A stretch of DNA of 64,000 nt. Source: SAR86 cluster bacterium SAR86E (GTDB lineage Bacteria > Pseudomonadota > Gammaproteobacteria > Magnimaribacterales > D2472). This document shows, piece by piece, positions 3,311 through 60,165 of the stretch. How positions within the stretch are numbered: the first letter of the stretch is position 1; each line of letters opens with the position of its first letter. The notes under the pieces are model-generated. The model did not search any database. It worked only from the letters and a program-made list of their open reading frames with translations, and had not been told where the DNA came from. The stretch spans positions 163,388 through 227,387 of the forward strand of contig AMWX01000001.1 in assembly GCA_000307935.1 (NCBI GenBank), given 5' to 3'. The position numbers and the translations under genes were made by a program.

Positions 3311-3394
3311 TATTACCTCTGAATTAAATACGAATAAAAATCTCATTACTTAATATATCAAGAAAAATGATATTAATGTAAAAAATATGTATTT

Positions 3395-4408
3395 TTAAAA
3401 AGTGTATTTTAGGTCTATGCCAATTAGCCCGAAATTTTGATCGAAATAATGCTCAGTGCGTTGGTTAAGAACTATTTGTTCAAATCCAAGTAAATTATTT
3501 TTATAAATCGTTCCATGCAATGAAAGCTCAAAATCGTTATAAATATATTTTATTCCTAGCTTTATCATAAGATTGTTATTTGGAAGACTTGTAGATAAAG
3601 AGGAATAATTATCTTGACTGTAATAGAGAAAACTTGTGTCATAAAAAATTGTACTATGTTTATTTATTTGAAAATCTTTTTTAATATTAAAATTTGCAAC
3701 ATAGGAGTCCCATGGATCCAATTGAGGCAATCTTGATAATGTTGATTCAATAATAGACCCTAAAGTTCCATTTCCCAATTGAAGGTTATATAGAAATCCA
3801 GATTTAATTTCACTCAATGGTGTTAACCAATTGAACTCATGTTCAGTCATAGAAACAGTCAATTTAATTTCGTCAGCAAGAATATTTGATACAGCTTTAG
3901 TTAATGACATCTTAATTGTTTGAGCCTTACCATCAATCATTAGTATGTTTTCATCCAAAGGATCAAATTGGGGTTTTGAATTTGTAATTTTGAGATCATA
4001 TCCATCGCAGGATCCAATTATTAAACCAGTAAATTCATAGCATTCAATATATTGCGTGTCAGCTTCTTGATGCTCTAAGCCTAGTGAAATTGCTAGGTCA
4101 GACTCAATTAAATAAAAAATTTCAATACTATTATTTGTAGATGTTAAATTTACATTTTTAGGTTCAGATGATCTCTGAACGTCTAGTTCAAACTCAGTAG
4201 AATTAATTAATAGACCAAATTTATTACGCAAAAGAAAAACCTCTAATGCATCATTTGAGCTTGTATCGAATGATTGTGGAATAGAAGGTAGGAAATCCCA
4301 TTCTTTATCAGCATAAGAAAAAGAAGTCTTAACATATCCATCTAACGCAAAAACATTGTAAGAAAATATAGATAAAAATAAAAAATATAAATAGAATTTC
4401 TTAATCAT
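3395..4408 (-). CDS. Putative outer-membrane beta-barrel protein
   Basis: 337 aa. Signal peptide MIKKFYLYFLFLSIFSYNVFA|LDG, a strand-like alternating pattern, and a C-terminal ...DLKYTF with the terminal Phe typical of OMPs. Family not recognised. Confidence 0.5.
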   Translation of the reverse strand: MIKKFYLYFLFLSIFSYNVFALDGYVKTSFSYADKEWDFLPSIPQSFDTSSNDALEVFLLRNKFGLLINSTEFELDVQRSSEPKNVNLTSTNNSIEIFYLIESDLAISLGLEHQEADTQYIECYEFTGLIIGSCDGYDLKITNSKPQFDPLDENILMIDGKAQTIKMSLTKAVSNILADEIKLTVSMTEHEFNWLTPLSEIKSGFLYNLQLGNGTLGSIIESTLSRLPQLDPWDSYVANFNIKKDFQINKHSTIFYDTSFLYYSQDNYSSLSTSLPNNNLMIKLGIKYIYNDFELSLHGTIYKNNLLGFEQIVLNQRTEHYFDQNFGLIGIDLKYTF

Positions 4409-5282
4409 GGAATTTCTTTACCAAAGCTGAAGTATCAAGCTTACCATAGCCCTCAGAATCTAATTTTTTATATTCATCAAACGTCTGTTTTCCTATGCTA
4501 AGTTGTAATTTTTGTTTTTGAGCTTCAGAAAGTATGATGCCCAAATCTTTAATCATTAAACGAATAGCAAAGCCAAAATCATATTCATTTGATACCATGG
4601 TTTTAAATCTATTATCCATTTGCCAAGACTGAGCTGCTCCATTGGAGATAGCTTCAAACACTTTACCTAAGTCAACATCATATTTTTTGCCAAAAACAAT
4701 ACTCTCAGATAAACCTTGTAATGTCCCTGCAATAGATAATTGATTCATCATTTTTGCTATTTGGCCATGGCCTGACTCACCAATATGAGTAATTGATTTT
4801 GTATATGCGCTTATGAAAGTAGATATTTTTGAAAAATTATCAATTGAACCACCAATCATTACTGACAAGGTTCCATTAACTGCTGCTATCTCACCTCCAG
4901 AAATTGGGGCATCATAAAAATCAACATTTTTTTTAATAATGATTTCATTTTTTATAAATTGATTGACCAATTCTAGTGAAGTTGTTGAATGATCCAATAT
5001 AAAGCTATTATCTTGAAGAGAGGAAATCAGTGATGAATCAAGCAGACTATTTGTTATTGCATGATCATCTTTAAGACATGTGATAATCCCATCAAATTTT
5101 ATATCATTGGTCTCAAATACATACTCTTTACCATTATATTTGGTAAGCCAAAGCTTGGTTTTTGATTGAGTTCTGTTGAAAACGTATAAATCTACATTAG
5201 GATTTTTAGATAGATGTCCAGCCATAGGAAAACCCATGGTACCAAGACCAACAAAAAGATATTTTTTTTTATATTTTTGCAA
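4401..5282 (-). CDS. NAD(P)-dependent oxidoreductase, 3-hydroxyisobutyrate/6-phosphogluconate dehydrogenase family
   Basis: 293 aa with N-terminal Rossmann motif GLGTMGFPMAGHL and family-typical length. Overlaps the downstream OMP gene by 8 nt. Confidence 0.8.
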   Translation of the reverse strand: MQKYKKKYLFVGLGTMGFPMAGHLSKNPNVDLYVFNRTQSKTKLWLTKYNGKEYVFETNDIKFDGIITCLKDDHAITNSLLDSSLISSLQDNSFILDHSTTSLELVNQFIKNEIIIKKNVDFYDAPISGGEIAAVNGTLSVMIGGSIDNFSKISTFISAYTKSITHIGESGHGQIAKMMNQLSIAGTLQGLSESIVFGKKYDVDLGKVFEAISNGAAQSWQMDNRFKTMVSNEYDFGFAIRLMIKDLGIILSEAQKQKLQLSIGKQTFDEYKKLDSEGYGKLDTSALVKKFHD

Positions 5283-5745
5283 GTTGGTATTGAGCAGATG
5301 ATACCTCTAAGGCTCCAGGTTCCTCAATATCAATTGAAGTAACTTTGCCATCTTCAATTAACATAGCAAATCTTTTGCATCTATCACCAAGACCAAAAGC
5401 TGAGCCGTCCATTTTTAATCCAAGTTCATTTGTTAAATTGCAGTTTCCATCAGCAATCATAATAATATCATTTGCATTTGATGCATCAGCCCATGCTTGA
5501 ATAACAAATGGATCGTTAACAGAAATAAAAATTACATTTAGATCCTTTTTATTAAATTTTGATAGATTCTCTACATATCCGGGCAAATGTGAACCATGAC
5601 AGGTTGGTGTAAATGCACCGGGAACCCCAACTAATAGAAATTTTTTATCTTTAAGTAAGTCAACTGATTCTTTGGTTCCAATCTCTCCGTTAGCAATTAC
5701 AGTAACTGTAACTGATGGAAATTGGTCATTAATATTAATTGTCAT
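5269..5745 (-). CDS. Peroxiredoxin, Prx5-type
   Basis: 158 aa with the peroxidatic-Cys motif PGAFTPTCHGSHLPGY. Confidence 0.85.
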   Translation of the reverse strand: MTININDQFPSVTVTVIANGEIGTKESVDLLKDKKFLLVGVPGAFTPTCHGSHLPGYVENLSKFNKKDLNVIFISVNDPFVIQAWADASNANDIIMIADGNCNLTNELGLKMDGSAFGLGDRCKRFAMLIEDGKVTSIDIEEPGALEVSSAQYQLAKI

Positions 5746-6977: not shown

Positions 6978-8852
6978 ATGAAATTAATTAACAGATCAAA
7001 AGCTAACAAAGCAATTATCACGACTTCTAATTTTAAGATTGAAACTAAAGTTCAAAACTCAATTTTAAGATACAAAAAAATTATTCTGCAGAATGGTACT
7101 AAAGCATTTAAACAAATTAATGATGAGCTAGGGTTAAAAACACCCAAAACACTCAAAGTATCAATAAAGGATATTAAAAAATCTGAGGGCTTATTAACAG
7201 ATAACATTAAAATTGCTATTTTGCAGGCAGCAAATAATATCAAGACCGTTTGTAAGTCAGATCTAAACAAAGCTAACTTCAAGGCTATTGAGACCACTAA
7301 AGGAATTAAAATATGGAAGGAATTTAAACCAATAGATAAGGTTGGTATATATGTTCCAGGTGGATCAGCTCCACTTGTATCATCATTACTGATGCAATTA
7401 ATTCCTGCAATTGTTGCTGGTTGTAAAAATATCACGATATGCACTCCCCCATTAAAAAATGGTGATGTTGCACCAGAAATTTTATGGGCAGCTAAGCAAT
7501 ATGGCGTGACAAATATTTATAAAGTTGGTGGAGCTCAGGCAATTTTTGCCATGGCATATGGCTCAACGATAGTTCCGAAAGTAGATAAAATTTTTGGTCC
7601 TGGTAATGCATACGTCAATGCTGCCAAACAACTAATATCTAGTGAGGGAATCTCAATAGATCTTCCAGCTGGACCTAGCGAGGTATTGGTAATAACAAAC
7701 GATATCAATAAAGTTAAATTGGCAGCCTCAGATGCTCTCTCACAGTTAGAGCATGATCCTAACTCACAGGCTTTGATAATGTCTTGTAAGTTAAATGTTT
7801 TGAATGCAGTTAAAAAAGAAATTCAAAATCAACAAAAATTATTAAAGAGACAATCCATTTTAAAAGATAGCATTAAAAATTTGTTATTAATAAAAGCTAA
7901 GTCTTTCGTTGACAGCGTAGCTGTAATTAATGATTGTGCTCCTGAACATTTAATATTACTTGATGATGATTATTCTTTATATTTAAAAGATATTAATAAT
8001 GCTGGATCTATATTCTGTGGCCCTTTAAGCCCAGAATCATTTGGTGATTATGCTTCTGGAACAAATCATGTACTTCCAACCAATGGTAATGCTAAAACAC
8101 ACTCTGGACTAAGTATTAATGATTTTGGAAAGTATATTTCTGTGCAAACAGCCTCTCAAGAAGGATTTAATAATCTTAAAAATACAGTTATAGAATTAGC
8201 CAATGCCGAAAAACTAGATGCTCATATCAACGCTGTAAAAATTAGAGAGACATTTCTTGAGTCAGTGAGACCAGGCAGAACATCCGTTGATATTAGAAAA
8301 ACAAATGAGACCAGTATCTACATTAACTTAAATCTTGATGGTAGCGGAAATTACAATATAAATACTGGGATTAAATATCTTGATCACTTGCTTGAACAGT
8401 TTGCTAAGCATAGTTCCATTGACCTTCAATTAACCTCTATTGGAGATTTAGAGATAGATGAGCATCACTCAATTGAAGATATAGCCATAACTCTTGGAGA
8501 GTCTATTAAATCTGCTCTGGGACAGCGCAATGGAATTTCTAGATATGCTTCGAGTGAGACACTGGTAATGGATGAAGTTCAATGTAATGTGAGCATTGAT
8601 TTATCAACAAGAAGATATCTTAAATTCAAAGCATCTAAACTAAGAGAATTTGTAGGTGACTTCCCTACTGAAATGTTCAAGCATTTTTTTGTATCTCTTA
8701 TTAATTCAGCGGCTCTTACTTGCCACATAAATACAACTGGCGAAAATTCACATCATATATTAGAAGCAACCTTCAAAACATTTGCTCGAGCATTCAAATC
8801 CGCAATTGTCATTGAATCAGATTCAAGTTCCTCAACTAAAGGTGTCTTGTGA
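6978..8852 (+). CDS. hisD/hisB: Fusion protein: histidinol dehydrogenase (N) + imidazoleglycerol-phosphate dehydratase (C)
   Basis: 624 aa in one frame. HisD motifs: GGAQAIFAMAYG, IFGPGNAYVNAAK, SQLEHDPNS, GDYASGTNHVLPT, and a C-terminal LDAHINAVKIR. After about 10 linker residues, IGPD motifs follow: RKTNETSIYINLNLDGSG, DEHHSIEDIAITLG, GENSHHILEATFKTFARA. Confidence 0.9.
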   Translation: MKLINRSKANKAIITTSNFKIETKVQNSILRYKKIILQNGTKAFKQINDELGLKTPKTLKVSIKDIKKSEGLLTDNIKIAILQAANNIKTVCKSDLNKANFKAIETTKGIKIWKEFKPIDKVGIYVPGGSAPLVSSLLMQLIPAIVAGCKNITICTPPLKNGDVAPEILWAAKQYGVTNIYKVGGAQAIFAMAYGSTIVPKVDKIFGPGNAYVNAAKQLISSEGISIDLPAGPSEVLVITNDINKVKLAASDALSQLEHDPNSQALIMSCKLNVLNAVKKEIQNQQKLLKRQSILKDSIKNLLLIKAKSFVDSVAVINDCAPEHLILLDDDYSLYLKDINNAGSIFCGPLSPESFGDYASGTNHVLPTNGNAKTHSGLSINDFGKYISVQTASQEGFNNLKNTVIELANAEKLDAHINAVKIRETFLESVRPGRTSVDIRKTNETSIYINLNLDGSGNYNINTGIKYLDHLLEQFAKHSSIDLQLTSIGDLEIDEHHSIEDIAITLGESIKSALGQRNGISRYASSETLVMDEVQCNVSIDLSTRRYLKFKASKLREFVGDFPTEMFKHFFVSLINSAALTCHINTTGENSHHILEATFKTFARAFKSAIVIESDSSSSTKGVL

Positions 8853-39500: not shown

Positions 39501-40631
39501 ATGAAAACTGACATATGTAAAAAACTTGGAATTGAATACCCTATATTTGCTTTTACTCATTGCAGGGATGTTGTTGTTGCAGTTAGTAAAGCTGGTGGAA
39601 TTGGGGTGCTCGGTGCTGTGGGCTACTCACCGGAACAACTGAAGGAAGAGCTTGATTGGATTGATGAGCATATTGGAGAGTATCCATATGGTGTCGATAC
39701 AGTAATTCCTCAAAAATATGAAGGGATGGATGAAAAAGATCCTGAGCAATTATTAGAATCTTTACAAAAAATGATACCTGATGGTCATAGAGAATTTGTT
39801 GAAGAGCTTTTATCAGATAACGGGGTACCCAAAGCCCCAGAAACTAATGGTCCCAAGGGAGGTCTCTTAGGTTGGACAGAGGCAACAGCTGAACCTCAAA
39901 TTGATGAAGCATTAAAACATCCAAACGTAAAATTAATTGCTAACGCCCTAGGTACTCCTCCAGCAGATATGATTAAGAAAATTCAAGATAAAGGAGTTTT
40001 AATTGGAGCCTTATGTGGAAAAATTAAACAAGCCGTTGCTCACAAAGAAGCTGGATTAGATTTTATAATAGCTCAAGGTGGTGAAGGTGGTGGTCATACA
40101 GGTGAAATAGGGAGTATTGTCTTATGGCCTCAAATTATTGATGCAGTAGATGGTTTACCAGTTTTAGCTGCGGGAGGTATTGGAAGCGGCCGTCAAATGG
40201 CTGCAGCAATGTCTACTGGAGCACAAGGTGTTTGGTGTGGCTCATTATGGCTTGCTGTAGAGGAAGCTGCTGCTCAACCAGCTGAAAAAGACTCTTATTT
40301 AAATGCAACCAGTGAGGATACAATTAGAAGCAAGGCTTGGACCGGAAAGCCTGCAAGAATGCTGAAAAATAAATGGACTGAAGCATGGGAAAATCCTGAA
40401 AATCCTGATCCATTACCTATGCCACTTCAAGGAATGATCACTTTTGATGCTATGAGACGCACCTCTATGTATGCTGGCTCTGGAAGCACTCAAGAAGTTT
40501 CGTTTAATGCTGCTGGACAAGTTATCGGGCAAGTGAAACAAATTGAATCTGTAAAAGATGTTATCTATAGAATGATTAATGAGTATCTTGATTCTGTTGA
40601 GCGATTAAACTCTCTGCTACCAAAAGAATAA
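39501..40631 (+). CDS. Nitronate monooxygenase (NMO/2-nitropropane dioxygenase) family FMN enzyme
   Basis: 376 aa with IIAQGGEGGGHTG and LAAGGIGSGRQMAAA. Confidence 0.8.
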   Translation: MKTDICKKLGIEYPIFAFTHCRDVVVAVSKAGGIGVLGAVGYSPEQLKEELDWIDEHIGEYPYGVDTVIPQKYEGMDEKDPEQLLESLQKMIPDGHREFVEELLSDNGVPKAPETNGPKGGLLGWTEATAEPQIDEALKHPNVKLIANALGTPPADMIKKIQDKGVLIGALCGKIKQAVAHKEAGLDFIIAQGGEGGGHTGEIGSIVLWPQIIDAVDGLPVLAAGGIGSGRQMAAAMSTGAQGVWCGSLWLAVEEAAAQPAEKDSYLNATSEDTIRSKAWTGKPARMLKNKWTEAWENPENPDPLPMPLQGMITFDAMRRTSMYAGSGSTQEVSFNAAGQVIGQVKQIESVKDVIYRMINEYLDSVERLNSLLPKE

Positions 40632-40640
40632 TTTTTATTA

Positions 40641-40823
40641 ATGCTTGCAAGTCTCTTTTCTGAGCTCAATGACTTGCTATGGGGTCTTGGTATAGTTTCT
40701 TTTTCTATAGTTGGATTGTTGATATTACCAAAAAAATTTTCAGATAAACTCGGTCAGCACCCTCTAATTTTAGTGATTATGTTTTTTACAATTCTATATT
40801 TAGTAATAAAAATATTTAACTAA
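40641..40823 (+). CDS. Possible small two-helix membrane protein
   Basis: 60-aa ORF 9 nt after the NMO gene with two hydrophobic stretches. No homology recognised. Confidence 0.3.
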   Translation: MLASLFSELNDLLWGLGIVSFSIVGLLILPKKFSDKLGQHPLILVIMFFTILYLVIKIFN

Positions 40824-42115
40824 TTGCTTGAATTGAAATCAGTTGAAAAGTCCTCGACTAAATTAATAAATGCTTTTACTCCATTAGATAAAGCAGAATC
40901 ATCAACATAAAAGTATGGTGAATGATTTGTTGGGCTATCCTCGTCACCAGGCGCATTCACTCCCAAGAAAAAGAATAAGCCTGGAACTTGTTTAGCAAAA
41001 AATGAAAAATCCTCAGCACCAGTCCTAGGAACTCTTGCCTCAAAAAAATCTCCATCAGCAGCTTCACTCAAAGAAGAAGAATATTTATTAGCAAGCTCTT
41101 CATCATTAACAGTTACTGGATAACCTCCATATACTTGAAATTCTGCAACAGCCTTGGCGTGATGAGCAGCAGCTACATTTTCAGCAATAAGCTTAATCTC
41201 ATCTCGTATTTGAGCGGCATAAGAATCTTTGAATGTTCTAATAGTGCCCTCTAAGAATGCTGTTGAGGGAATGATATTATTTCTTGTACCTGCTTTCATA
41301 ATGCCAACTGTAACCACTGCTTGGCTATCTAAGAGATTTAACCTTCTGCTAACAATCGTCTGGAGTGTTGTTGCTATATCGGATGCTGCAATAATTGGAT
41401 CTACGCCACTCCAGGGTCTTGAACCATGTGTTTGCTTGCCCTGTACAGTAATTCTAAAAGCTTCTGCTGACGCCATAATTGGTCCAGGCTTAGTCCAAAT
41501 TTGACCATTTTTAAAGTTTGAGACATGTAAACCAAAGATGGCATCAGGTTTTTCAATCTCAAAAAGACCTTCTTTAAGCATTAGCTCAGCACCGCCCTCT
41601 TCTCCCTCAGGTGCTCCTTCTTCAGCAGGTTGAAAAATTAGTAAAATATCACCATTTAGCTTATCAGTATTTCTAGATAGGAAGCTAGCAACTCCAAGCA
41701 ATACTGCTATATGAGCATCATGACCACATGCATGCATGACTCCAACTTCATTACCTTGATAGGTAGTTTTAACTTTTGATGAAAATGGCAGGTTAAGCTT
41801 TTCAGTAACTGGCAAACCATCAATATCAGCTCTGAGTGCAATTAGCGGACCTGGGTTTTGACCTCTAATAAATGCAGTAACTCCTGTAATACCAAAATCT
41901 GTATTAGGCTCAAGACCCATCTCAGTTAAAGCTTCAGCTATAGATTCTTGTGTTTTGTATTCTCTGTTAGATAGTTCAGGATACTGGTGAAAGTAATGTC
42001 TCCAGTCAGTAACCTTTGTCATGACTCCTTGAAGATCTCTATTCAATTGAGTTTTTAAACCATCTGCTGATAAGGGATTTATCAACAACATTAAAATAAT
42101 AAAGTTTCTCATCAT
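40820..42115 (-). CDS. M20D-family amidohydrolase (aminoacylase/hippurate hydrolase-like), secreted
   Basis: 431 aa with MHACGHDAH and a signal-peptide-like N-terminus MMRNFIILMLLINPLSA|DG. The ATG abuts the upstream stop. Confidence 0.8.
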   Translation of the reverse strand: MMRNFIILMLLINPLSADGLKTQLNRDLQGVMTKVTDWRHYFHQYPELSNREYKTQESIAEALTEMGLEPNTDFGITGVTAFIRGQNPGPLIALRADIDGLPVTEKLNLPFSSKVKTTYQGNEVGVMHACGHDAHIAVLLGVASFLSRNTDKLNGDILLIFQPAEEGAPEGEEGGAELMLKEGLFEIEKPDAIFGLHVSNFKNGQIWTKPGPIMASAEAFRITVQGKQTHGSRPWSGVDPIIAASDIATTLQTIVSRRLNLLDSQAVVTVGIMKAGTRNNIIPSTAFLEGTIRTFKDSYAAQIRDEIKLIAENVAAAHHAKAVAEFQVYGGYPVTVNDEELANKYSSSLSEAADGDFFEARVPRTGAEDFSFFAKQVPGLFFFLGVNAPGDEDSPTNHSPYFYVDDSALSNGVKAFINLVEDFSTDFNSSN

Positions 42116-42994
42116 CTAGCCTTTTTTAAATACATTGATAAAAATAGCCGGTGTTTTATCCAAATAATCCTTGAAATCTGAACGTCTCTCTAGCGAACGT
42201 TTATCCATCATTGAAACTGAAGCAACTGCTATTAAAGCATACATAATTAATGTGCCTATCAACAGCCATGCAAACGATAAATTTGCAGCTAGTGCGAATA
42301 CAAATAGGCTAAACCAAAATAATATTTCTCCAAAATAATTTGGATGACGTGAGTAATACCAAAGACCTGATTTCATAGTTTTAGGCTCAGAAAGATTTTT
42401 TCTAAAATTAAACATTTGTTGATCAGAGATAATTTGGATAATGACTGCTGCTATAGCTAAAAAAGCAGCCAAAATATCTAAACTATTTAATTCGTTACCC
42501 GGATAAGCAAGAGCATAAATCATTGGAAGTAATGCCATATAAACACAGAGCGTTGGAATAAGATGTATTGAACCAAAATCTACCATGAAGTATTGAAATT
42601 TATTATTTGTTTTCCCCTTCATCATAACGTAGCGCCAATCTTCATGTGAAAAACCTTCCCATGACCTCATCCAGTTATAGGTTAATCTTATGGCCCAAAA
42701 CAAGAGACATGCATGCATTAAAAATGCTCTTTGAACATTTCCTGCAGCCGAAATATCCGCCCAACACATGATAGTTAAAACAACTGGAATAACTGACCAG
42801 AAAGCATCATACCAACTAGAGTTTTTAAAAATTACGCTTAAAAAATATATAAAAATGGTAGCCTCAATATGACAGACAAGTACTTTAAATATTAGCGATG
42901 ACTCAGGAAAAAGGCTCCAAGTAAATAACATAGAATAAATGCACGCTATGTAACCAACTAAAATAACTGATAAATGTAAAAGTTTAGTTCTCAT
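42116..42994 (-). CDS. DUF1295 / steroid 5-alpha-reductase-like polytopic membrane protein
   Basis: 292 aa with multiple TM helices and YSRHPNYFGEILFWFS. The start overlaps the fbiC stop by 4 nt. Confidence 0.75.
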   Translation of the reverse strand: MRTKLLHLSVILVGYIACIYSMLFTWSLFPESSLIFKVLVCHIEATIFIYFLSVIFKNSSWYDAFWSVIPVVLTIMCWADISAAGNVQRAFLMHACLLFWAIRLTYNWMRSWEGFSHEDWRYVMMKGKTNNKFQYFMVDFGSIHLIPTLCVYMALLPMIYALAYPGNELNSLDILAAFLAIAAVIIQIISDQQMFNFRKNLSEPKTMKSGLWYYSRHPNYFGEILFWFSLFVFALAANLSFAWLLIGTLIMYALIAVASVSMMDKRSLERRSDFKDYLDKTPAIFINVFKKG

Positions 42995-45405
42995 GTGATA
43001 TTAGTTAATTTTTTAGGTTGATGATAATCATTATTTATTGAGATGAGAGGAATAGACTGCAAGTTAATTAAATCATGAAGATTATTATCCAATGAATCAT
43101 ATAATGTATTTCTCTGTTGTATGTTTAAGTTTAGCTCATTGGCAATTCCTACAACGTCCTCCAGTCGGAGCTCCTGACCAAAAGAAGCACCGGCAGATCT
43201 TGTAATAGATTCATTCATCAAAACTCCTCCAATGTCATTTATCCCAGAAGATAGAAGAAACTTCAGTCCTGGAAGACCCATTTTAACCCATGAGCCTTGA
43301 ATATTATTAATCTGGCCTTGGAACAAAATTCTTGCAACAGAATGAACCAAAATTGTTTCTTTGAATGTAGGTCCAGGTCTAGCATGGCCGCGCCTATATA
43401 TTGGAGCCTCATCTGCAACAAAGGGCAAAGGAACAAATTCTGTTATACCATTAGTTCTCTGTTGAAGGTTTAAAAGCTCCAATAAATGATGAGCAACATG
43501 AGCAGTTCTCTCTACATGACCAAACATCATTGTTGATGTTGTGGGCAATCCCACAGAATGCGCGGTTTCAATAATTTCGATCCATTGCTTGGTGGTAAGT
43601 TTATCGGGGCAAATAATTTCTCTGATATCATCATGTAAAATTTCTGCAGCCGTTCCTGGGAGTGAGTTCAAACCTGCTTTTTTTAACTCTAGAAGAAACT
43701 CTTTAGCAGAGATATTTAAAGTTTTTCTACCGTGATCGATTTCTAAGGGAGAAAAAGCATGAATATGAATTGATGGTGAGCATGATCTAATTGACCTTAC
43801 TATCTCAAGATAAGTTTCACCAGAATATTTTGGATGTATTCCACCTTGTAAACAGACTTCTGTAGCACCTCTTTCAACTGCTTCTTTTGTTCTTCGAATA
43901 ATCTCTTCATGTGAAATATTATACGGCTTGCCTCTGAGGTCATCATGCCCCCTGCCTTTTGAAAAAGCACAAAAATTACATTTAAAAGAGCAGATATTTG
44001 TATAGTTAATATTCCTGTTAACAACAAAAGTGATGTCTGATCCATGCACTTGTGACTTAACATCATTGGCATAATCAGTAACATATTTAAAGTCAGTATC
44101 AGACGTCTCAAGGAGCTGCTGAATATTCTCAATAGATGGGTTGTTTTCAACTTTATTAATGGATTGACGAATACTAGAATTAAATACAGCCTCAGGATAA
44201 GAAGGTATTTTAGTGCTAATTCCTGATCTCCAGAAATCAGAACGAATAAGGGACTTAGAATCAGTTATTTGAAGTAGCTTGGAAGATATTATAGGTGTTG
44301 AAAAACTATCAAGATCAGTAAAATATTTTGGATATAAGGTTGATCTTGATTCTAAAGATTGATTTGAAATCGAAGCTATTTTATTTAACTTTTCTATTTC
44401 AGGCCAAGCTGCCTCTGGGTTTACATAATCCTTGGTAACTGGTGATATTCCGCCAAAATCATTTATTCCAGACTGAGATAGCTGTTTTATATTGTCTGAA
44501 TTTAAATTAGGCGGGACCTGCAGACTAATATCACCAGGCAAGATCAATCTGGACATTGCAATTGTCCACATAAGCTCATCGAATGATGGTTCGCTAGCAT
44601 TTGCCATCAATGTATTGGGCTTTGCTCTAAAGTTCTGCACTATAACTTCTTGGATATGATTGTATGTGCGATGCAATTCGGCTATTTTTTGCAATGACTC
44701 TAAGCGCTCCAACCTTGTTTCACCAATTCCTATCAATATTCCAGTGGTAAAAGGAACCTTTTGTTTTCCAGCTTCCTCTAATGTCTTCATTCTGAAAATA
44801 GGATCTTTGTCTGGAGAGCCGTAATGTGGTTGACCTTTTTCAGTAAGCCGAGATGATAATGACTCAATCATCAAACCCATAGAGCCACTTAGAGGTTTAA
44901 GTTTAGTAATTTCATCAGCAGTTAAACAACCAGGATTTAAATGTGGTATTAAAGATGTCTCATTTAAAACAGCTTCAGCGCATGCAGCTAAATAATCATT
45001 TGTCGTCTTGTAACCATTCTCTAACAACCACTCTCTTGCAGCTTTGTATCTCAATTCTGGCTTATCACCTAGTGTAAATAAGGCTTCATAACAACCGTGA
45101 GCCTCGCCCTCTTTAGCAATTGAAATGACTTTGTCTATTGATAAATAAGGTGATTCAACTTTTTTAGGAGTTTGAGCAAAGGTACAGTAATGACAAACAT
45201 CTCGACATAAAAATGTTAAAGGGATAAACACTTTTGGAGAATAGGTTAATAAGTTTTTGTAATGTATTGTTTTCTTTTCGTAGGAAGCTTTTATCAAAGT
45301 ATCAGATAAACAAATATTAGCTAAGGAACTTAATTCAGAAAATTCAATTGATCCAGAAGCAATTAATCGCTCTAAGGTTTGGTTTGACTGTTCTTGAATT
45401 TTCAA
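42991..45405 (-). CDS. fbiC: FO (7,8-didemethyl-8-hydroxy-5-deazariboflavin) synthase, fused CofG+CofH
   Basis: 804 aa with two radical-SAM motifs, CRDVCHYC in the N half and CSFKCNFC in the C half. Confidence 0.9.
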   Translation of the reverse strand: MKIQEQSNQTLERLIASGSIEFSELSSLANICLSDTLIKASYEKKTIHYKNLLTYSPKVFIPLTFLCRDVCHYCTFAQTPKKVESPYLSIDKVISIAKEGEAHGCYEALFTLGDKPELRYKAAREWLLENGYKTTNDYLAACAEAVLNETSLIPHLNPGCLTADEITKLKPLSGSMGLMIESLSSRLTEKGQPHYGSPDKDPIFRMKTLEEAGKQKVPFTTGILIGIGETRLERLESLQKIAELHRTYNHIQEVIVQNFRAKPNTLMANASEPSFDELMWTIAMSRLILPGDISLQVPPNLNSDNIKQLSQSGINDFGGISPVTKDYVNPEAAWPEIEKLNKIASISNQSLESRSTLYPKYFTDLDSFSTPIISSKLLQITDSKSLIRSDFWRSGISTKIPSYPEAVFNSSIRQSINKVENNPSIENIQQLLETSDTDFKYVTDYANDVKSQVHGSDITFVVNRNINYTNICSFKCNFCAFSKGRGHDDLRGKPYNISHEEIIRRTKEAVERGATEVCLQGGIHPKYSGETYLEIVRSIRSCSPSIHIHAFSPLEIDHGRKTLNISAKEFLLELKKAGLNSLPGTAAEILHDDIREIICPDKLTTKQWIEIIETAHSVGLPTTSTMMFGHVERTAHVAHHLLELLNLQQRTNGITEFVPLPFVADEAPIYRRGHARPGPTFKETILVHSVARILFQGQINNIQGSWVKMGLPGLKFLLSSGINDIGGVLMNESITRSAGASFGQELRLEDVVGIANELNLNIQQRNTLYDSLDNNLHDLINLQSIPLISINNDYHQPKKLTNIT

Positions 45406-45409
45406 CGAT

Positions 45410-45985
45410 CTAACTGTTTATGTATTTAATTAGTTTGAAGTAATCTTCCTCGGAGTCAAGGTCATCTTGAAGGCTTTCAATTGAAATATCCTGATAATTT
45501 AATCTATTATTTTTAAATTCATGCATAAAAAGATTGTAACTATTGAGTCCAAATTTTAGATCAAAGGAAATTGCTGAATTAAACATCAAACAATTTGTAC
45601 CTTGCATCGAAAGATCTGAAATAATACTAACTTTTTTAATGTCAAAGGAATGAGCTAACTCATGGAGATCCGGTTCATTTATTTTAGGGAGATCTGCATG
45701 CATGATTAAAATAATGTCATTGGTTGTTTGCGCATAGATAGCTTCATTTAGACCATCGTTTAATGATGAGTTTGTGAAATATGAAGTTGAATAGTCTAGT
45801 TGTAAGCTCTTGTCATTTGTCACAACTGTTATTGAATTACAGATTTTAGAGTTGTGCAAAGTATCAATAGTTTTTTTTGCCATTGAGGCAGCTAAAACTT
45901 CTCTTTCAGGTGAGGTAATAATATTTGCTAATCGATTCTTTGAAGATGAAAACTTTTTAATCGGTATAAATGCAGAGACATTCAT
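45410..45985 (-). CDS. cofC: F420 biosynthesis guanylyltransferase (CofC/FbiD)
   Basis: 191 aa with N-terminal AFIPIKKFSSSKNRL (family IPxK....K.RL). Positioned between cofD and fbiC. Confidence 0.75.
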   Translation of the reverse strand: MNVSAFIPIKKFSSSKNRLANIITSPEREVLAASMAKKTIDTLHNSKICNSITVVTNDKSLQLDYSTSYFTNSSLNDGLNEAIYAQTTNDIILIMHADLPKINEPDLHELAHSFDIKKVSIISDLSMQGTNCLMFNSAISFDLKFGLNSYNLFMHEFKNNRLNYQDISIESLQDDLDSEEDYFKLIKYINS

Positions 45986-46915
45986 TTATTTTGATTCAAG
46001 CTCATCAATGATTCTCTTGGCAAGTGCATTTTTTTTATTAACATTGTTCATAATTAAATCAGCAATATGAACCTCATAACCTAGATCATTTAATTCATTA
46101 GACTCACTTACATCAGAAGAATCTATAAAAATTCTTTGTGAGTAATTATTATAAAATTTAGCAATAGTTTTTACACTTACTTCTTGGCCGAGTTCTTGCA
46201 TCATTTTTGCTGTTGGTCCTTTTAATGACTGAGCATTAACAATTGGACTAATAGTTGTAACATTATGCGAATAATCATGTAAATAATTTTTTAGTTTGGG
46301 TAACTGGAGCATTGGATTAATGCTTACATAGGGATTTGATGGGCATATGATGATTTCATCATAAGTTGACAAATCAAGGTCTTTGTTAAAATCTGCCTTA
46401 TCAAGACCCTTGAAAACAAAATCAGTTACAGGTGGTTCGCACTTCAATTTAACAAAATATTCTTGAAATGAAAGCAACCTATTTTTTGTTTGTATATAAG
46501 TTTCAACAGATTGATTGCTCATTGGAAAAATAAATTTTGGGAGATTGAATGACTCACATAAATTATGTGTTGCATCTGTAAGAGATTGTCCAGAATTAAT
46601 TAAATGTGTTCTTTGAATATGTGTTGCTAAGTCTTTGTCTCCAAGTTGAAACCATGTTTCTCCCTCCATATCAGACAAAGCTGAAAGCATATTCCATGTC
46701 TCATCTTTTCTTCCCCAGCCCTTTGATGTATCGGATTCACTGGCAAGGGTATACATCACAGTATCAAGATCAGGACAGATTCTTAAACCAAGATGCGTGA
46801 AATCATCTCCAGTATTAACTGCAATAGTTAAGTTATCTGAATCAATTGAATTTTTAAATCCCAAGGCAAGCTTGGCTCCCCCAACACCCCCACATAACAA
46901 CAAATAATTCTTCAT
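45986..46915 (-). CDS. cofD: 2-phospho-L-lactate (or analogue) transferase (CofD/FbiA)
   Basis: 309 aa with LCGGVGGAKLALG and an ICPSNP motif. Confidence 0.85.
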   Translation of the reverse strand: MKNYLLLCGGVGGAKLALGFKNSIDSDNLTIAVNTGDDFTHLGLRICPDLDTVMYTLASESDTSKGWGRKDETWNMLSALSDMEGETWFQLGDKDLATHIQRTHLINSGQSLTDATHNLCESFNLPKFIFPMSNQSVETYIQTKNRLLSFQEYFVKLKCEPPVTDFVFKGLDKADFNKDLDLSTYDEIIICPSNPYVSINPMLQLPKLKNYLHDYSHNVTTISPIVNAQSLKGPTAKMMQELGQEVSVKTIAKFYNNYSQRIFIDSSDVSESNELNDLGYEVHIADLIMNNVNKKNALAKRIIDELESK

Positions 46916-47745
46916 CTAAATAAGTCCTCTTCCTCACTTCTAATTAAAGATCGAGAGTCGCTAAGATTATTTTGTTTAAATTGATAGCCTTTGATTAATA
47001 CAACAGGTTTTTTTTGTGCAGCCTGGCCCATCAATAATGATGAGGCTGCTGCTAATTCGTCAGCGATGCCTATTTGAGTTACTTTTAACTCATTATTATA
47101 AAGGTCTTTTTTACCTCGCTCATCTAAAAGGCATTCAATGTTATGACTCCCTATCGTAAAACCTACTATTCCATTTCTAAAAGGTCTGCCCATAGTATCG
47201 GTGATAATTATAGATATGTTTTTTTGAAAGTATTGAGATATGGATTCTGAAATCTTCTTAGCTGATTCGTCAGGATTTTCTGGTAACAACAAGACAATAT
47301 TCTTGAGTTGATCAATGTTAGACCGATCAATTCCTGCGTTTGCATGAATAAATCCCAATTTATGCTCAACAATTAATACTCCCATTCTATAGCGGACCAC
47401 CTTTTGTGATTCATTGAGTATTGCTTGAATAAACTTTGGATCTTTATCAATTTTTGTAGATAAGGTCATGGCCTCTTCTGAGGGGTCCAAGTGTGAGATG
47501 TCGAGATATCTATTTTCTGATTTAGAAATAATTTTTTGAGCTATTGCAATGACATCTCCATCATCAATTGATATTGATTCAGAGGTTATAGCCTTGATGA
47601 TTTCTTTGGATACATCTTGTCCTGGCTGAATAAGCGGAAGTGTCTCTAGAGCAATGAGGTTAATGGAACTGATAATACTTCTCTTGTTAGTGGCCTGTGA
47701 TCTTAATGCCTGAATGTGCAAGTGAGTGTTTTTTATTGATCGCAA
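46912..47745 (-). CDS. cofE: F420-0:gamma-glutamyl ligase, single-domain CofE
   Basis: GDVIAIAQKIISKSE and HANAGIDRSN. At most 277 aa, with no C-terminal nitroreductase-like domain. The start is uncertain: only TTG codons at 47745 or 47721 are available, and both overlap fno. Confidence 0.85.
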   Translation of the reverse strand: MRSIKNTHLHIQALRSQATNKRSIISSINLIALETLPLIQPGQDVSKEIIKAITSESISIDDGDVIAIAQKIISKSENRYLDISHLDPSEEAMTLSTKIDKDPKFIQAILNESQKVVRYRMGVLIVEHKLGFIHANAGIDRSNIDQLKNIVLLLPENPDESAKKISESISQYFQKNISIIITDTMGRPFRNGIVGFTIGSHNIECLLDERGKKDLYNNELKVTQIGIADELAAASSLLMGQAAQKKPVVLIKGYQFKQNNLSDSRSLIRSEEEDLFR

Positions 47746-48319
47746 TTAATATTGACGTTAGAGCTTCAGCAGCAACTGAATTGCATAATGGTCCAGCATG
47801 CCAGCCAGTCAGACCAGCATCAGCTGCTAACTCAATTACGGTATTTCTAGCATCAAGAAAATCTCCAGCAACCAAAACATCACAATCAATCTCAGCATCG
47901 GTCTGCAGTAATTCAGCTGAAATATTTTGAAAAGCAGATACTACAGTAGTTTGTTCACCCAAAATAGATTGAGCATTTAATGCCGCAGAACCTATTTCAG
48001 GCAATTGAACCCTCATAACCTTTGGAGGCATCAGTGGAACAGTTGCATCAATCATTATCTTATTTTGCAAACCATCATCAATACTTATTAAAGTTGATTC
48101 TTGATGCGCAAATGGCACAGTTAAGCATGCGATTTCACAGATTTTAGCAGCATCAATATTCAACATTCCAGATGAACTTTCCAAGCCTAATTGCACAGCA
48201 ATTTCTTGAGCCTTAGGTAAATCACGGCTGCCAATAAGCACGTCATGTCCAGCCTTAATCCATCTTGAAGCCAACCCTTTACCCAAGGATCCTGTCCCGC
48301 CTAGAATAGCTATTTTCAT
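47687..48319 (-). CDS. fno: NADPH-dependent F420 reductase (Fno/NpdG family)
   Basis: 210 aa with MKIAILGGTGSLGKGLASRWIKAGHDVLIGSRD. GGAG RBS upstream. Confidence 0.8.
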   Translation of the reverse strand: MKIAILGGTGSLGKGLASRWIKAGHDVLIGSRDLPKAQEIAVQLGLESSSGMLNIDAAKICEIACLTVPFAHQESTLISIDDGLQNKIMIDATVPLMPPKVMRVQLPEIGSAALNAQSILGEQTTVVSAFQNISAELLQTDAEIDCDVLVAGDFLDARNTVIELAADAGLTGWHAGPLCNSVAAEALTSILIAINKKHSLAHSGIKITGH

Positions 48320-49818: not shown

Positions 49819-51345
49819 TTATCCAAATAATTTTCTGACCAAGCGATTGCCCCAAAATATTTTTAAAGCTCCTTTTAGTTGCTCAAATGATTTGTCTGTA
49901 TAGGGATAAGCTGATGCTGACTTTTTGCCTATGATAATTGGCATTGGATGGGCATATGCTAACAAGCCCTCTTTTCCATTCACTACCCCTAGGCCACTTT
50001 CTTTGACTCCACCGAATGGAACTTCATTAACTCCATAGCTCATTGCCATATCATTTACAGAGCAGGCACCTGTTTCAATTGCTTTGGCTAATCTCTGACC
50101 TTTTTTTAAATCTTTGGTCCAAACATTTCCATTCAATCCATAATGAGATTGGTTGGCTAACATTAATGCTTCCTCTTCTGATTGAACTTTCATAATTGAG
50201 ATAATTGGCCCGAAGGTTTCATCTTTCATGATCTTCATCTCATGAGTAACTTCTACAAGAACTGTTGGTTCAAAATATAAGCCTTCAAAATTTGGATTTC
50301 TTTTCCCTCCAACCAATACCTTTGCACCTTTAGCGACTGCATCATTCACATGATCTTCGATGATTTCAACTTGCTTATCCCAAAAAGTAGGGCCAACATC
50401 ACCTTTACAATCATTGGATTGAATGAGAGATTGAGTTATTGAAACTGCCTCTGCAACAAACTCATCATAAACATCCTCCATGACATAAATTCTTTCAGTG
50501 CCACAGCAATACTGACCTGCATTCATACATGAGCCCACAACAGCACCACTAGCAGCATCTTTGATGTCTGCATCAGAACAAACAATCATGGCATCTTTGC
50601 CACCCAATTCAAGACTATAAGGAATCAGCATTTCTCCACATTTTGCTGCAATCTTTTTACCTGTAGCAACGCTACCTGTAAAAGAAACCTTATCTGGACC
50701 CTGGTCAATTAACTCCGCACCTGTCTCCCCATCTCCTATAACGGTCTGCACAAGGTGCTCTGGGGCTTCAGCTAACGCAAAAATTTCCTGCACCAATGCT
50801 CCAGACATAGGAGTAACTTCAGATGGTTTCACCACCACGCTATTTCCACAAAGAACAGCTTGAATGACTGGATTAATAGACAGTATGAATGGACCATTCC
50901 ATGGAGTAATAACTGCTACCACACCTCTTGGCTTGTATGTGATTATTGTTTTCTTAAGAAACTGCATAGGTCCATGCATCTTTATTTTTTTATCTGCTAA
51001 CCACTTTTGAGCTCTCTTTGCATAGAAGACCAAAGAATCAACAGCTGAAAATACTTCCATAGACATAGCTTCTTGCTCAGGTTTGCCAGTCTCTCTCATG
51101 ACAACATCCATGATTCTGTCTTGCTGCTGAATAACTACATCAGCAACCCTATGCATTAACTCAACTCTTTCTTTCAAAGTTGTTTTCTTCCACTCACTTT
51201 GCGCAACTTTGGCTTGGGTCATTATCGATGAAATCTCTTCTGATGAAGTGCATTCATAAGTATCGATATGAGAGAGATCGACCGGGCTTTTTAAAGTTAA
51301 TAGTTTTTTGCCGCTCTCTGAATGAGAGATAGAAAAAATAGCCAT
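49819..51345 (-). CDS. Aldehyde dehydrogenase
   Basis: 508 aa with ELGGKDA and the catalytic-Cys region NAGQYCCGTERIYV. Confidence 0.9.
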   Translation of the reverse strand: MAIFSISHSESGKKLLTLKSPVDLSHIDTYECTSSEEISSIMTQAKVAQSEWKKTTLKERVELMHRVADVVIQQQDRIMDVVMRETGKPEQEAMSMEVFSAVDSLVFYAKRAQKWLADKKIKMHGPMQFLKKTIITYKPRGVVAVITPWNGPFILSINPVIQAVLCGNSVVVKPSEVTPMSGALVQEIFALAEAPEHLVQTVIGDGETGAELIDQGPDKVSFTGSVATGKKIAAKCGEMLIPYSLELGGKDAMIVCSDADIKDAASGAVVGSCMNAGQYCCGTERIYVMEDVYDEFVAEAVSITQSLIQSNDCKGDVGPTFWDKQVEIIEDHVNDAVAKGAKVLVGGKRNPNFEGLYFEPTVLVEVTHEMKIMKDETFGPIISIMKVQSEEEALMLANQSHYGLNGNVWTKDLKKGQRLAKAIETGACSVNDMAMSYGVNEVPFGGVKESGLGVVNGKEGLLAYAHPMPIIIGKKSASAYPYTDKSFEQLKGALKIFWGNRLVRKLFG

Positions 51346-51347
51346 TG

Positions 51348-52418
51348 TTATAACTCCTTAAGTTTAGCTTCAAGCATTGGCGTTACATGATTGTTAATAT
51401 GTGCATTCATACCCATAGGCATAATCTCATAATGCTCTAGTTTACGAACAACTTTAACCATAATTACGGTAAATTTGTATAACGCTAAAATGTAATAGTA
51501 ATCAAAATCATCTGCGCTAAACCCTGTAAGCGCTTCCCATTTAGCAATAGTTGCCACGGGCCCAGGAAAACCACTCAACCTCTCTACATGGACGCCTTTT
51601 GAGTTGCAATCATCAATTGCAATTCCCCATGCAAGATCCATGCAAGGATCGCCGAGAGCTGCCATTTCCCAATCTAAAACAGCTGAGACTTGGCCATCGG
51701 GGTCATACATAATGTTTGCACATCTGCAATCGCCCCAAAGTATAGAGGCTTGAGTTGGTTTTGGTTTATTGGTTTTTAGCCACTCACGCGCTTGATCTGC
51801 AACGGGATGAGCTTCACCGTCCATAGCCCAATCATGAAAGTTAAAATAATAATTTAGCTCTTGATCAAGATAATCTTCAGAAAGTTCTGGTCTATTCAGA
51901 AATTTAAAATCTTCATTCGCAATATCAACTTGATGAATTTTAGCCATTTGCTCAACCCAACCCCACCAAATCCTTTCTCTAACCTCTTCTGAGGAATCAG
52001 CAACCCACCCTTCTTGATGAAACGGAGGATTATCAGATGGAGCATCACCACTTGCCATTTCCATAACATAAAACGAAGTTCCAAAAACTTCATCACTAGG
52101 CTCATACCAAAGGACTTTTGGAACTTTGATATCATGATCAGCTAGTTTTTGCATGATCAAAAATTGCTTATGAATATCATAGTCAGGAAATACAAAAAAA
52201 CCTTCAGGATAGAATCGCAGCACCATACCGGTCTTAATTCTTGTATCTTCTAATTTATATGAGACATTGAAACTTAATGTTTCATTTGAAAAGCCTGTAT
52301 TTTCAGGGCCGCCTAATAACTCCACATCTAGATCAGTGGCTCCATCTAGTTTTGTCTCAATCCAGTTACTAAAAATTACCTTAGTTGCATCTAAATCTCT
52401 TTCTTGTGGCTTTGGCAT
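51348..52418 (-). CDS. Phosphotransferase (APH/ACAD10-N-like kinase fold)
   Basis: 356 aa with WGDCRCANIMYD and VLDWEMAALGDP. Confidence 0.75.
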   Translation of the reverse strand: MPKPQERDLDATKVIFSNWIETKLDGATDLDVELLGGPENTGFSNETLSFNVSYKLEDTRIKTGMVLRFYPEGFFVFPDYDIHKQFLIMQKLADHDIKVPKVLWYEPSDEVFGTSFYVMEMASGDAPSDNPPFHQEGWVADSSEEVRERIWWGWVEQMAKIHQVDIANEDFKFLNRPELSEDYLDQELNYYFNFHDWAMDGEAHPVADQAREWLKTNKPKPTQASILWGDCRCANIMYDPDGQVSAVLDWEMAALGDPCMDLAWGIAIDDCNSKGVHVERLSGFPGPVATIAKWEALTGFSADDFDYYYILALYKFTVIMVKVVRKLEHYEIMPMGMNAHINNHVTPMLEAKLKEL

Positions 52419-60088: not shown

Positions 60089-60165
60089 GCGCCCGTAGCT
60101 CAGCTGGATAGAGTACTTGGCTACGAACCAAGGGGTCGGGAGTTCGAATCTCTCCGGGTGCGCCA
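60089..60165 (+). tRNA. tRNA-Arg (anticodon ACG)
   Basis: A 77-nt cloverleaf folded by hand. Acceptor GCGCCCG/CGGGTGC, D arm GCTC-AGCTGGATA-GAGT, anticodon arm CTTGG-CTACGAA-CCAAG, T arm GGGAG-TTCGAAT-CTCTC, with encoded CCA. Close to E. coli tRNA-Arg(ACG). TATAAT at 60075-60080. Confidence 0.9.

Follow-up and report, generated by a model that had tools for sequence, protein, structure and literature searches.

A DUF1295 membrane protein gene and a gene for a probably exported M20D amidohydrolase behind fbiC in SAR86: probable passengers at the end of an F420 gene run

Introduction

Where phosphoenolpyruvate (PEP) is used for the biosynthesis of coenzyme F420, dehydro-F420-0 is reduced by FbiB's C-terminal domain or by the stand-alone FbiE, both of which are soluble, FMN-dependent proteins of the nitroreductase fold (PMC8498797). 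In Gram-negative producers whose CofE consists of the ligase domain only, the source of the lactyl group is still open; the CofC of such producers prefers 2-phospho-L-lactate (2-PL) in vitro, an assay that cannot settle the substrate used in vivo (PMC8764529). A proven ene-reductase of a different kind is UsgR, a PEMT/DUF1295-like fungal membrane protein that acts on a non-steroid substrate in ustilaginoidin biosynthesis (PMC8597850). Here we analyzed a 64-kb stretch of DNA from the SAR86 cluster bacterium SAR86E (hereafter the window), in which a run of F420 biosynthesis genes ending in fbiC is directly followed by a gene for a DUF1295 membrane protein and a gene for an M20D metallo-amidohydrolase. 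The literature searched contained nothing that links DUF1295 with F420 and nothing on F420 in SAR86.

An earlier reading of the same DNA (the original prediction) had proposed that the DUF1295 protein could be a non-orthologous dehydro-F420-0 reductase or, alternatively, an F420H2- or NADPH-dependent reductase of steroid-like substrates, and that the M20D enzyme might trim the oligoglutamate tail of F420. Its account of dehydro-F420-0 reduction by FbiB's C-terminal domain or by a stand-alone nitroreductase is correct (PMC8498797). Our comparison leads to a different view of the two genes: we consider it rather probable that both are real, intact passengers that close the F420 transcription unit at its 3' end and take no part in F420 biosynthesis.

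Results and discussion

Gene structure behind fbiC

Seven minus-strand open reading frames (ORFs) between 48319 and 40820 were assigned with Pfam and NCBIfam models to npdG, cofE, cofD, cofC, fbiC, DUF1295 and M20D. The end of this run comprises the following features:

42991..45405, minus strand: fbiC, fused CofG/CofH FO synthase of 804 aa; TIGR03550 and TIGR03551 over their cutoffs
42116..42994, minus strand: DUF1295 protein of 292 aa; PF06966 at 150.6 bits (E 6e-44), all-helical in the AlphaFold model
40820..42115, minus strand: M20D metallo-amidohydrolase of 431 aa, predicted to be exported; TIGR01891 at 324.6 bits, PF01546 and PF07687
42065..42115, minus strand: predicted Sec-type signal peptide of M20D, MMRNFIILMLLINPLSA followed by DG; pattern kept in the SAR86 orthologues

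The stop codon of fbiC and the start codon of the DUF1295 gene overlap as ATGA at 42991-42994 (ATC ACA TGA in one frame, ATG AGA ACT in the other), and the TAG stop of the DUF1295 gene at 42118-42116 is immediately followed by the M20D ATG at 42115 (GGC TAG ATG ATG). The original prediction had described this overlap, the abutting M20D start and seven tightly packed cistrons, and its gene calls, family assignments and junction geometry were all confirmed from the sequence; the motif and the N-terminus that it quoted, YSRHPNYFGEILFWFS and MMRNFIILMLLINPLSADG, are both present. It had also named a terminator separating the genes as a finding to look for, and a terminator scan detected no terminator-like site between 40.6 and 43.1 kb. 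Consensus matches in the promoter and terminator scans were fewer than in shuffled sequence, so that nothing was learned from them on internal promoters. A search against Rfam gave no riboswitch or leader near the F420 operon, its sole match being a tRNA at 60089-60162. From the geometry of the junctions alone we infer that DUF1295 and M20D are co-transcribed and translationally coupled with npdG-fbiC. What the data show is the structure of the genes, their family membership, the signal-peptide pattern and the distribution of the linkage; the cofactor, the substrates and the cellular roles suggested below are inferred.

Linkage to F420 genes outside SAR86

Conservation of the linkage with cofCDE/fbiC across genomes had been put forward as a check of the proposed functions. 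We found the linkage in SAR86 only, and it was absent at every non-SAR86 F420, DUF1295 and M20D locus examined. A collection of plasmid and chromid replicons contained fbiC homologues at 46-52% identity in 74 replicons, among them replicons of Croceicoccus, Aromatoleum, Sphingobium, Sinorhizobium, Leisingera and Rhodococcus, and a DUF1295 gene was present in none of the 74. The only replicon of the collection with a DUF1295 homologue, from Persicobacter (E 2e-40), has no F420 gene within 20 kb of it. The annotated F420 operons of Croceicoccus marinus and Aromatoleum aromaticum hold no DUF1295, M20 or nitroreductase gene. On a 3.3-kb Spongiibacteraceae contig with fbiC, tblastn found no DUF1295; fbiC is followed there by a 509-aa ORF that was not scanned against Pfam. 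F420 genes were likewise found at none of seven non-SAR86 loci with DUF1295 (36-45% identity), which come from Bacteroidota, an actinobacterium and others, and neither DUF1295 nor F420 genes occurred within 10 kb of any of 79 non-SAR86 M20D loci.

The operons on C. marinus pCME4A9I and on plasmid 2 of A. aromaticum EbN1 share with SAR86 the same set of fbiC, npdG, ligase-only cofE, cofD and cofC, with 47-51% identity for fbiC and npdG. They differ from it in gene order, which is fbiC-npdG-cofE-cofD-cofC, whereas SAR86 has fbiC at the end, with the two extra genes behind it. The flanks differ as well: the Croceicoccus and Aromatoleum operons are bordered by oxidoreductases of the LLM or PNPOx type, and neither DUF1295 nor M20D accompanies them.

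These distributions bear directly on the proposal that the DUF1295 protein is a dehydro-F420-0 reductase, according to which CofC and CofD would use PEP and the DUF1295 protein would saturate the enolpyruvyl group with NADPH, replacing FbiB's C-terminal domain or FbiE. The ATGA coupling to fbiC, kept in most SAR86 lineages, is consistent with such a role, as is a CofE without a nitroreductase domain in a window whose scanned ORFs include no nitroreductase. The superfamily would moreover be suited to hydride transfer onto an activated C=C bond, as UsgR illustrates (PMC8597850), and the lactyl source in Gram-negative bacteria without the nitroreductase domain is the open question mentioned above (PMC8764529). 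However, the tie between DUF1295 and F420 is limited to synteny within SAR86, with no co-occurrence in the 74 fbiC replicons or at the seven DUF1295 loci; Croceicoccus and Aromatoleum have the same ligase-only CofE design and no DUF1295, and the closest non-SAR86 homologues of the protein stand in non-F420 contexts in Bacteroidota and others. For Paracoccus and Oligotropha, which are cited as producers of F420, a preference of CofC for 2-PL was seen in vitro (PMC8764529). The proposed substrate is soluble, anionic and cytoplasmic, whereas the substrates of the superfamily are hydrophobic. Nitroreductases are, in addition, reported elsewhere in SAR86 genomes (PMC11582366). The established enzymes, FbiB's C-terminal domain and FbiE, have only the proposed reaction in common with the DUF1295 protein, which has an unrelated, polytopic helical membrane fold. 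We regard the proposal as very improbable. If DUF1295 did supply the lactyl step, the gap would be closed and a new enzyme for heterologous F420 production gained, an outcome that the evidence makes unlikely. SAR86 with its complete F420 operon and ligase-only CofE nevertheless provides useful context for the question of the lactyl moiety, whether this comes from a supply of 2-phospho-lactate or from a reductase (PMC8764529).

The neighbours of the non-SAR86 DUF1295 genes recur: they are SDR/3-beta-HSD proteins, PF02544 (Steroid_dh) proteins, and a sulfotransferase or sulfatase. Such neighbours suggest that these genes are part of a conserved but uncharacterised module for modifying lipids or sterols. 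At four of the loci (L007, L008, L115, L118) the DUF1295 gene directly follows an SDR gene or lies beside PF02544 Steroid_dh together with a sulfotransferase or sulfatase. The surroundings of the F420 operon in the marine alphaproteobacterium C. marinus (L122; pCME4A9I, 88-128 kb) resemble those at 35.9-57.5 kb of the window, the shared neighbours being two NTF2/SnoaL-like proteins, a KstD-like FAD oxidoreductase (35%), SDRs, a Rieske protein and a sulfotransferase (28% identity); they also include F420-type LLM oxidoreductases, which the SAR86 window does not. F420 may serve this kind of alicyclic or steroid-like catabolism.

Linkage and packing within SAR86

Of 24 related genome loci, 23 belong to SAR86-type marine bacteria (17 titled SAR86), and the remaining one to a Spongiibacteraceae metagenome-assembled genome. 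The window's fbiC is 97% identical to that of the SAR86 single-cell genome AG-313-O08. About 30 SAR86 loci retain the order fbiC-DUF1295-M20 with junctions of -4 to +6 nt, and DUF1295 homologues of 85, 67, 53 and 49% identity all stand within it. In the same loci, however, a whole 16-gene block is syntenic, in the order APH, Aldedh, (SDR1), npdG, cofE, cofD, cofC, fbiC, DUF1295, M20, NMO, KstD-like, SDR2, SnoaL4, SnoaL2. Since the entire block is equally kept, conservation within SAR86 cannot tell function from inherited gene order, and we rejected it as evidence of function.

The same applies to the tight junctions. In the window, 26 of the 40 same-strand neighbour pairs are separated by a gap of at most 4 nt, the median gap is 0, and among the closely packed genes are unrelated ones, for example pdxJ, glutaredoxin and SnoaL. 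A cultured SAR86 isolate has a coding density of 96.3% (PMC11582366). Start/stop overlaps are thus the default in this genome, and packing by itself is no indicator of shared function; the close fit of the two genes against fbiC would reflect a genome of about 96% coding density. More generally, in streamlined genomes little can be concluded on shared function from genes being packed as in an operon.

The setting is also more ordinary than the original prediction had assumed when it spoke of an island, a misnomer for what is core chromosome and no mobile island. The window carries the his operon, fabD/G/F, tmk-holB, RNase E, metG, nhaB and mlaA, together with catabolic genes for a KstD-like protein, a KshA-like Rieske protein, two SnoaL proteins, several SDRs, a sulfotransferase and an FMO.

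Several points weigh against the reading of DUF1295 and M20D as passengers. The adjacency to fbiC survives the deepest SAR86 divergence sampled (fbiC 57%, cofC 33-34% identity), and rearrangements occur directly after M20 (in L004, L025, L026 and L029) and not inside fbiC-DUF1295-M20. With a CofE that lacks the nitroreductase domain and no match to the nitroreductase family PF00881 among the scanned ORFs of the 64-kb window, the reductase is unaccounted for if PEP is the precursor. The known F420H2-using families LLM and FDOR are likewise missing from the scanned ORFs of the window, and we know of no bacterial DUF1295 protein with an established substrate. As for the rearrangements, any operon would show a pattern in which they fall only outside the run.

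Broken reading frames were seen in two SAR86 loci: those of DUF1295 and M20 are truncated in a single-cell genome (L013, 12578-13958), and fbiC and M20 are in pieces on a JGI contig (L004, 7570-12184). They reflect either frameshifts introduced by sequencing or assembly, or a local decay of the genes. A further contig (L117, ENA ERZ27252072 k141_314274), with an apparent HSP20-SDR-DUF1295-M20 order and no fbiC, would have separated the pair from F420 but was discarded as an assembly chimera. In blastn its bases 2209-3779 are 99% identical to SAR86 MED-G84 (L023) and its bases 197-2283 match L118, and the join falls in the conserved RHPNYFGE region of the DUF1295 genes of the two organisms. Such a chimera is a warning for neighbourhood analyses on short assembled contigs.

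The DUF1295 protein

The match of the DUF1295 protein to PF06966 is full-length (150.6 bits against a cutoff of 20.4; residues 50-281, profile positions 2-235 of 235). An alignment of 60 homologues (36-92% identity) has 30 invariant columns, all of which are present in the window's protein; they include R216, H217, P218, N219, Y220, G222, E223, F226 and W227, which lie in an RHPNYFGE..FW motif. The AlphaFold model built from the 60 homologues (pLDDT 95.5, pTM 0.92) is all-helical and polytopic. In full-length match, invariant residues and all-helical polytopic form the protein agrees with the PF06966 family (annotated as "steroid 5-alpha reductase family enzyme"), whose members elsewhere lie beside SDR, Steroid_dh and sulfotransferase or sulfatase genes, whereas the SAR86 member lies behind fbiC.

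A Foldseek search placed subunit 8xku_G of the Arabidopsis Ycf2-FtsHi complex first among the PDB matches, followed by SRD5A2, MaSR1, PbSRD5A and ICMT, all of them weak (TM-score 0.32-0.46). The steroid and sterol reductases SRD5A2 (7BW1), PbSRD5A (7C83) and MaSR1 (4QUV) are thus among the best structural matches, and the reaction expected by analogy is that an activated C=C bond is reduced within the membrane at the expense of NADPH. However, they are only 15-19% identical to the DUF1295 protein, the Foldseek E-values exceed 0.01, and neither the substrate pocket nor the N-terminal half can be compared.

The core also aligns with a PF02544 protein. In hhalign, SDQQMFNFRK...RHPNYFGEILFW was aligned to SDNILINLRK...CPNLMGEIIEW with a probability of 83.5% and an E-value of 8e-6, the common pattern being SDxx(L/M)xx(L/F)RK ... 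PNxxGEIxxW (SDxxMxxFRK...RHPNYFGEILFW on the DUF1295 side). The aligned SDxxMxxFRK core is presumably the nicotinamide-cofactor core, as in SRD5A2. A Pfam scan of the window's protein gave no PF02544 match at E ≤0.001, the only matches being PF06966 and a sub-threshold one to ICMT; precomputed "weak" PF02544 matches exist for some orthologues. The residues of the putative cofactor core are invariant also in DUF1295 homologues from phyla that generally lack F420, which points to NADPH as the cofactor and to an F420-independent function.

The last observation bears on the idea that the DUF1295 protein consumes F420H2, as a membrane reductase whose hydride donor would be F420H2, regenerated by NpdG, and not NADPH. 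This idea would explain why the gene shares an operon with npdG and cof genes; F420 operons elsewhere are indeed flanked by F420-dependent oxidoreductases, and the classical F420H2-dependent families were not found among the scanned ORFs of the window. Against it, the invariant cofactor motif is the same in organisms without F420 and aligns to the NADPH site of PF02544 proteins, the gene does not co-occur with F420 genes outside SAR86, and no member of the superfamily is known to use a deazaflavin. We consider it most unlikely that the protein depends on F420H2. Were it such a consumer, or a dehydro-F420-0 reductase, a new use of, or a new route to, F420 would have been found in highly abundant surface-ocean bacteria.

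Taken together, these comparisons suggest that the DUF1295 protein is most likely a membrane ene-reductase for a hydrophobic substrate, which would be a lipid, an isoprenoid or a sterol-like compound. The second option of the original prediction, a reductase of steroid-like substrates, fits the neighbours in other phyla better than the first. UsgR is of interest here because it shows that C=C bonds of substrates other than steroids are reduced by this superfamily, which is the premise of the dehydro-F420-0 idea; it differs in being fungal and in acting on a naphtho-gamma-pyrone (PMC8597850).

The M20D amidohydrolase

The M20D protein matches TIGR01891 far above the cutoff (324.6 against 153.75 bits) and has both the catalytic domain (PF01546) and the dimerisation domain (PF07687). 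It stays below the cutoff of the CpsA equivalog model NF040868 (353.8 against 500 bits). Its closest solved relatives, at E-values of 1e-60 to 1e-66, are YxeP, 4EWT (SACOL0085), AgaA / N-acyl-glutamine aminoacylase and ILL2. The motifs HACGHD, PAEE, GxH and NHSP are invariant in eight M20D orthologues, as are C130, H132, E166, H197 and H398, which we take to be the metal ligands (Cys/His/Glu/His/His) of the family structures.

B. subtilis YxeP (1YSJ), S. aureus SACOL0085 (4EWT), the Corynebacterium aminoacylase (6SLF), the plant ILL2 (1XMB) and the archaeal CpsA share TIGR01891 and the same two-domain layout with the SAR86 protein. The latter differs in having a predicted cleavable signal peptide of about 17 residues, which is missing from the cytoplasmic enzymes of bacteria and archaea in this list. 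Alignments to the CpsA profile and to the 4EWT chain begin about 20 residues into the protein and so define an N-terminal extension of about 20 residues. The signal peptide was called from a hydropathy window and the alignment. Every SAR86 orthologue keeps an n-h-c pattern made up of a basic residue, a stretch of 12-15 hydrophobic ones and small residues at -3/-1, although the actual sequence drifts. Among metagenome relatives, nearly all of those with at least 43% identity carry a signal peptide, and most of those with at most 41% do not.

By these comparisons M20D belongs to a widespread subfamily of secreted M20D enzymes that spans many phyla, and it is probably located in the periplasm, as the original prediction had cautioned from the signal peptide. 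After Sec export it would act there as a two-metal amidohydrolase of the aminoacylase or carboxypeptidase type and would release amino acids from scavenged N-acyl amino acids or short peptides. Several of the non-SAR86 M20D genes have other peptidases or amidases as neighbours. F420 is a cytoplasmic cofactor; with a secreted M20D, trimming of its glutamate tail is unlikely. This suggestion finds no comparative evidence either, given the secreted subfamily and the lack of F420 genes at the 79 non-SAR86 M20D loci.

The two genes could also work together as a pair with no relation to F420: M20D would split an amino-acid conjugate and set free its hydrophobic part, an acyl or sterol-like moiety, which the DUF1295 protein would then saturate on its way to catabolism by the neighbouring NMO, KstD-like, SDR and SnoaL enzymes. 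They are adjacent, with junctions of 0 to -4 nt, in every SAR86 lineage seen, and the steroid- or alicyclic-type genes listed above for the window surround them (the KstD-like, KshA-like Rieske, two SnoaL, SDR, sulfotransferase and FMO genes). SAR86 is, furthermore, described as a degrader of lipids and steroids with periplasmic lipid breakdown (PMC11582366). Yet the two genes occur together at none of the 79 M20D and none of the seven DUF1295 loci outside SAR86, and the sole apparent SDR-DUF1295-M20 contig without fbiC is the chimera L117. The evolution of M20 is also slower than that of DUF1295 (minimum identity 67% and 49%, respectively), with no sign of co-evolution. A pair of this kind seems doubtful to us, though it deserves more credit than either proposal that ties the DUF1295 protein to F420. 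We favour two passenger genes with separate activities, and the roles suggested for DUF1295 and M20D would fit the lipid- and steroid-scavenging lifestyle of SAR86 (PMC11582366).

Other genes of the run and its surroundings

The F420 genes upstream of fbiC, and a small ORF that meets the run at its 3' end, are:

47687..48319, minus strand: npdG, NADPH-dependent F420 reductase (Fno), first of the run; TIGR01915 at 183.9 bits, cutoff 149.8
46912..47745, minus strand: cofE, F420-0:gamma-glutamyl ligase; PF01996 over residues 36-253 of 277, TIGR01916 at 266 bits
45986..46915, minus strand: cofD, 2-phospho-L-lactate transferase family; TIGR01819 at 269.6 bits, cutoff 257
45410..45985, minus strand: cofC, guanylyltransferase, very divergent; PF01983, TIGR03552 at 101.5 bits, slightly below the cutoff of 105
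40641..40823, plus strand: convergent small ORF of 60 aa, hydrophobic; its stop overlaps the M20D stop

The only gene of the run with a clear AGGAG ribosome-binding site is npdG (upstream sequence TTAGGAGACATTAA). The cofE product consists of the ligase domain only, without a C-terminal nitroreductase domain. Its start is uncertain: the TTG of the longest ORF at 47745 overlaps npdG by 59 nt, the family models begin to match at residue 28-36, and gene calls in relatives start later and give products of 157-240 aa. The true start is probably further downstream than 47745. Alignment of the SAR86 CofC with solved CofC/FbiD proteins was tried as a guide to its preference among PEP, 2-PL and 3-phosphoglycerate (3-PG) and was abandoned, the matches being too divergent (E 7e-5 to 8e-3) and partial.

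Directly upstream of the F420 operon, all SAR86 loci carry genes for an APH-family kinase (51348-52418) and an aldehyde dehydrogenase (the two spanning 49819-52418, minus strand). In the most divergent SAR86 lineage (L005) the two genes (2114-5337) are on the same strand as npdG with a gap of about 10 nt. The best model for the aldehyde dehydrogenase is succinate-semialdehyde dehydrogenase with 462 bits, the lactaldehyde dehydrogenase model reaching only 297 bits. The kinase could be a CofB-like lactate kinase and the dehydrogenase CofA-like, which together would supply 2-phospho-L-lactate; to our knowledge, the enzyme that acts as a CofB-like lactate kinase has never been identified.

On the other side of the run, an NMO/FabK-like FMN enzyme of the enoyl-reductase family (39501-40631, plus strand) is convergent to M20D in most SAR86 loci and is 76-99% conserved. 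It is pure speculation that this soluble FMN ene-reductase acts on dehydro-F420-0, for which it would be a chemically more natural candidate than DUF1295. The small ORF at 40641-40823 begins 9 nt past the NMO stop and encodes a two-helix protein; its overlap with the M20D stop leaves no intergenic space for a terminator. In tblastn it had full-length matches (43-95% identity) in 21 SAR86 loci and a partial one in a further locus, and it is probably a real small membrane protein.

Farther away, within the his operon, a single 624-aa ORF at 6978-8852 (plus strand) is an apparent hisD-hisB fusion, with histidinol dehydrogenase at residues 25-423 and imidazoleglycerol-phosphate dehydratase at residues 463-605.

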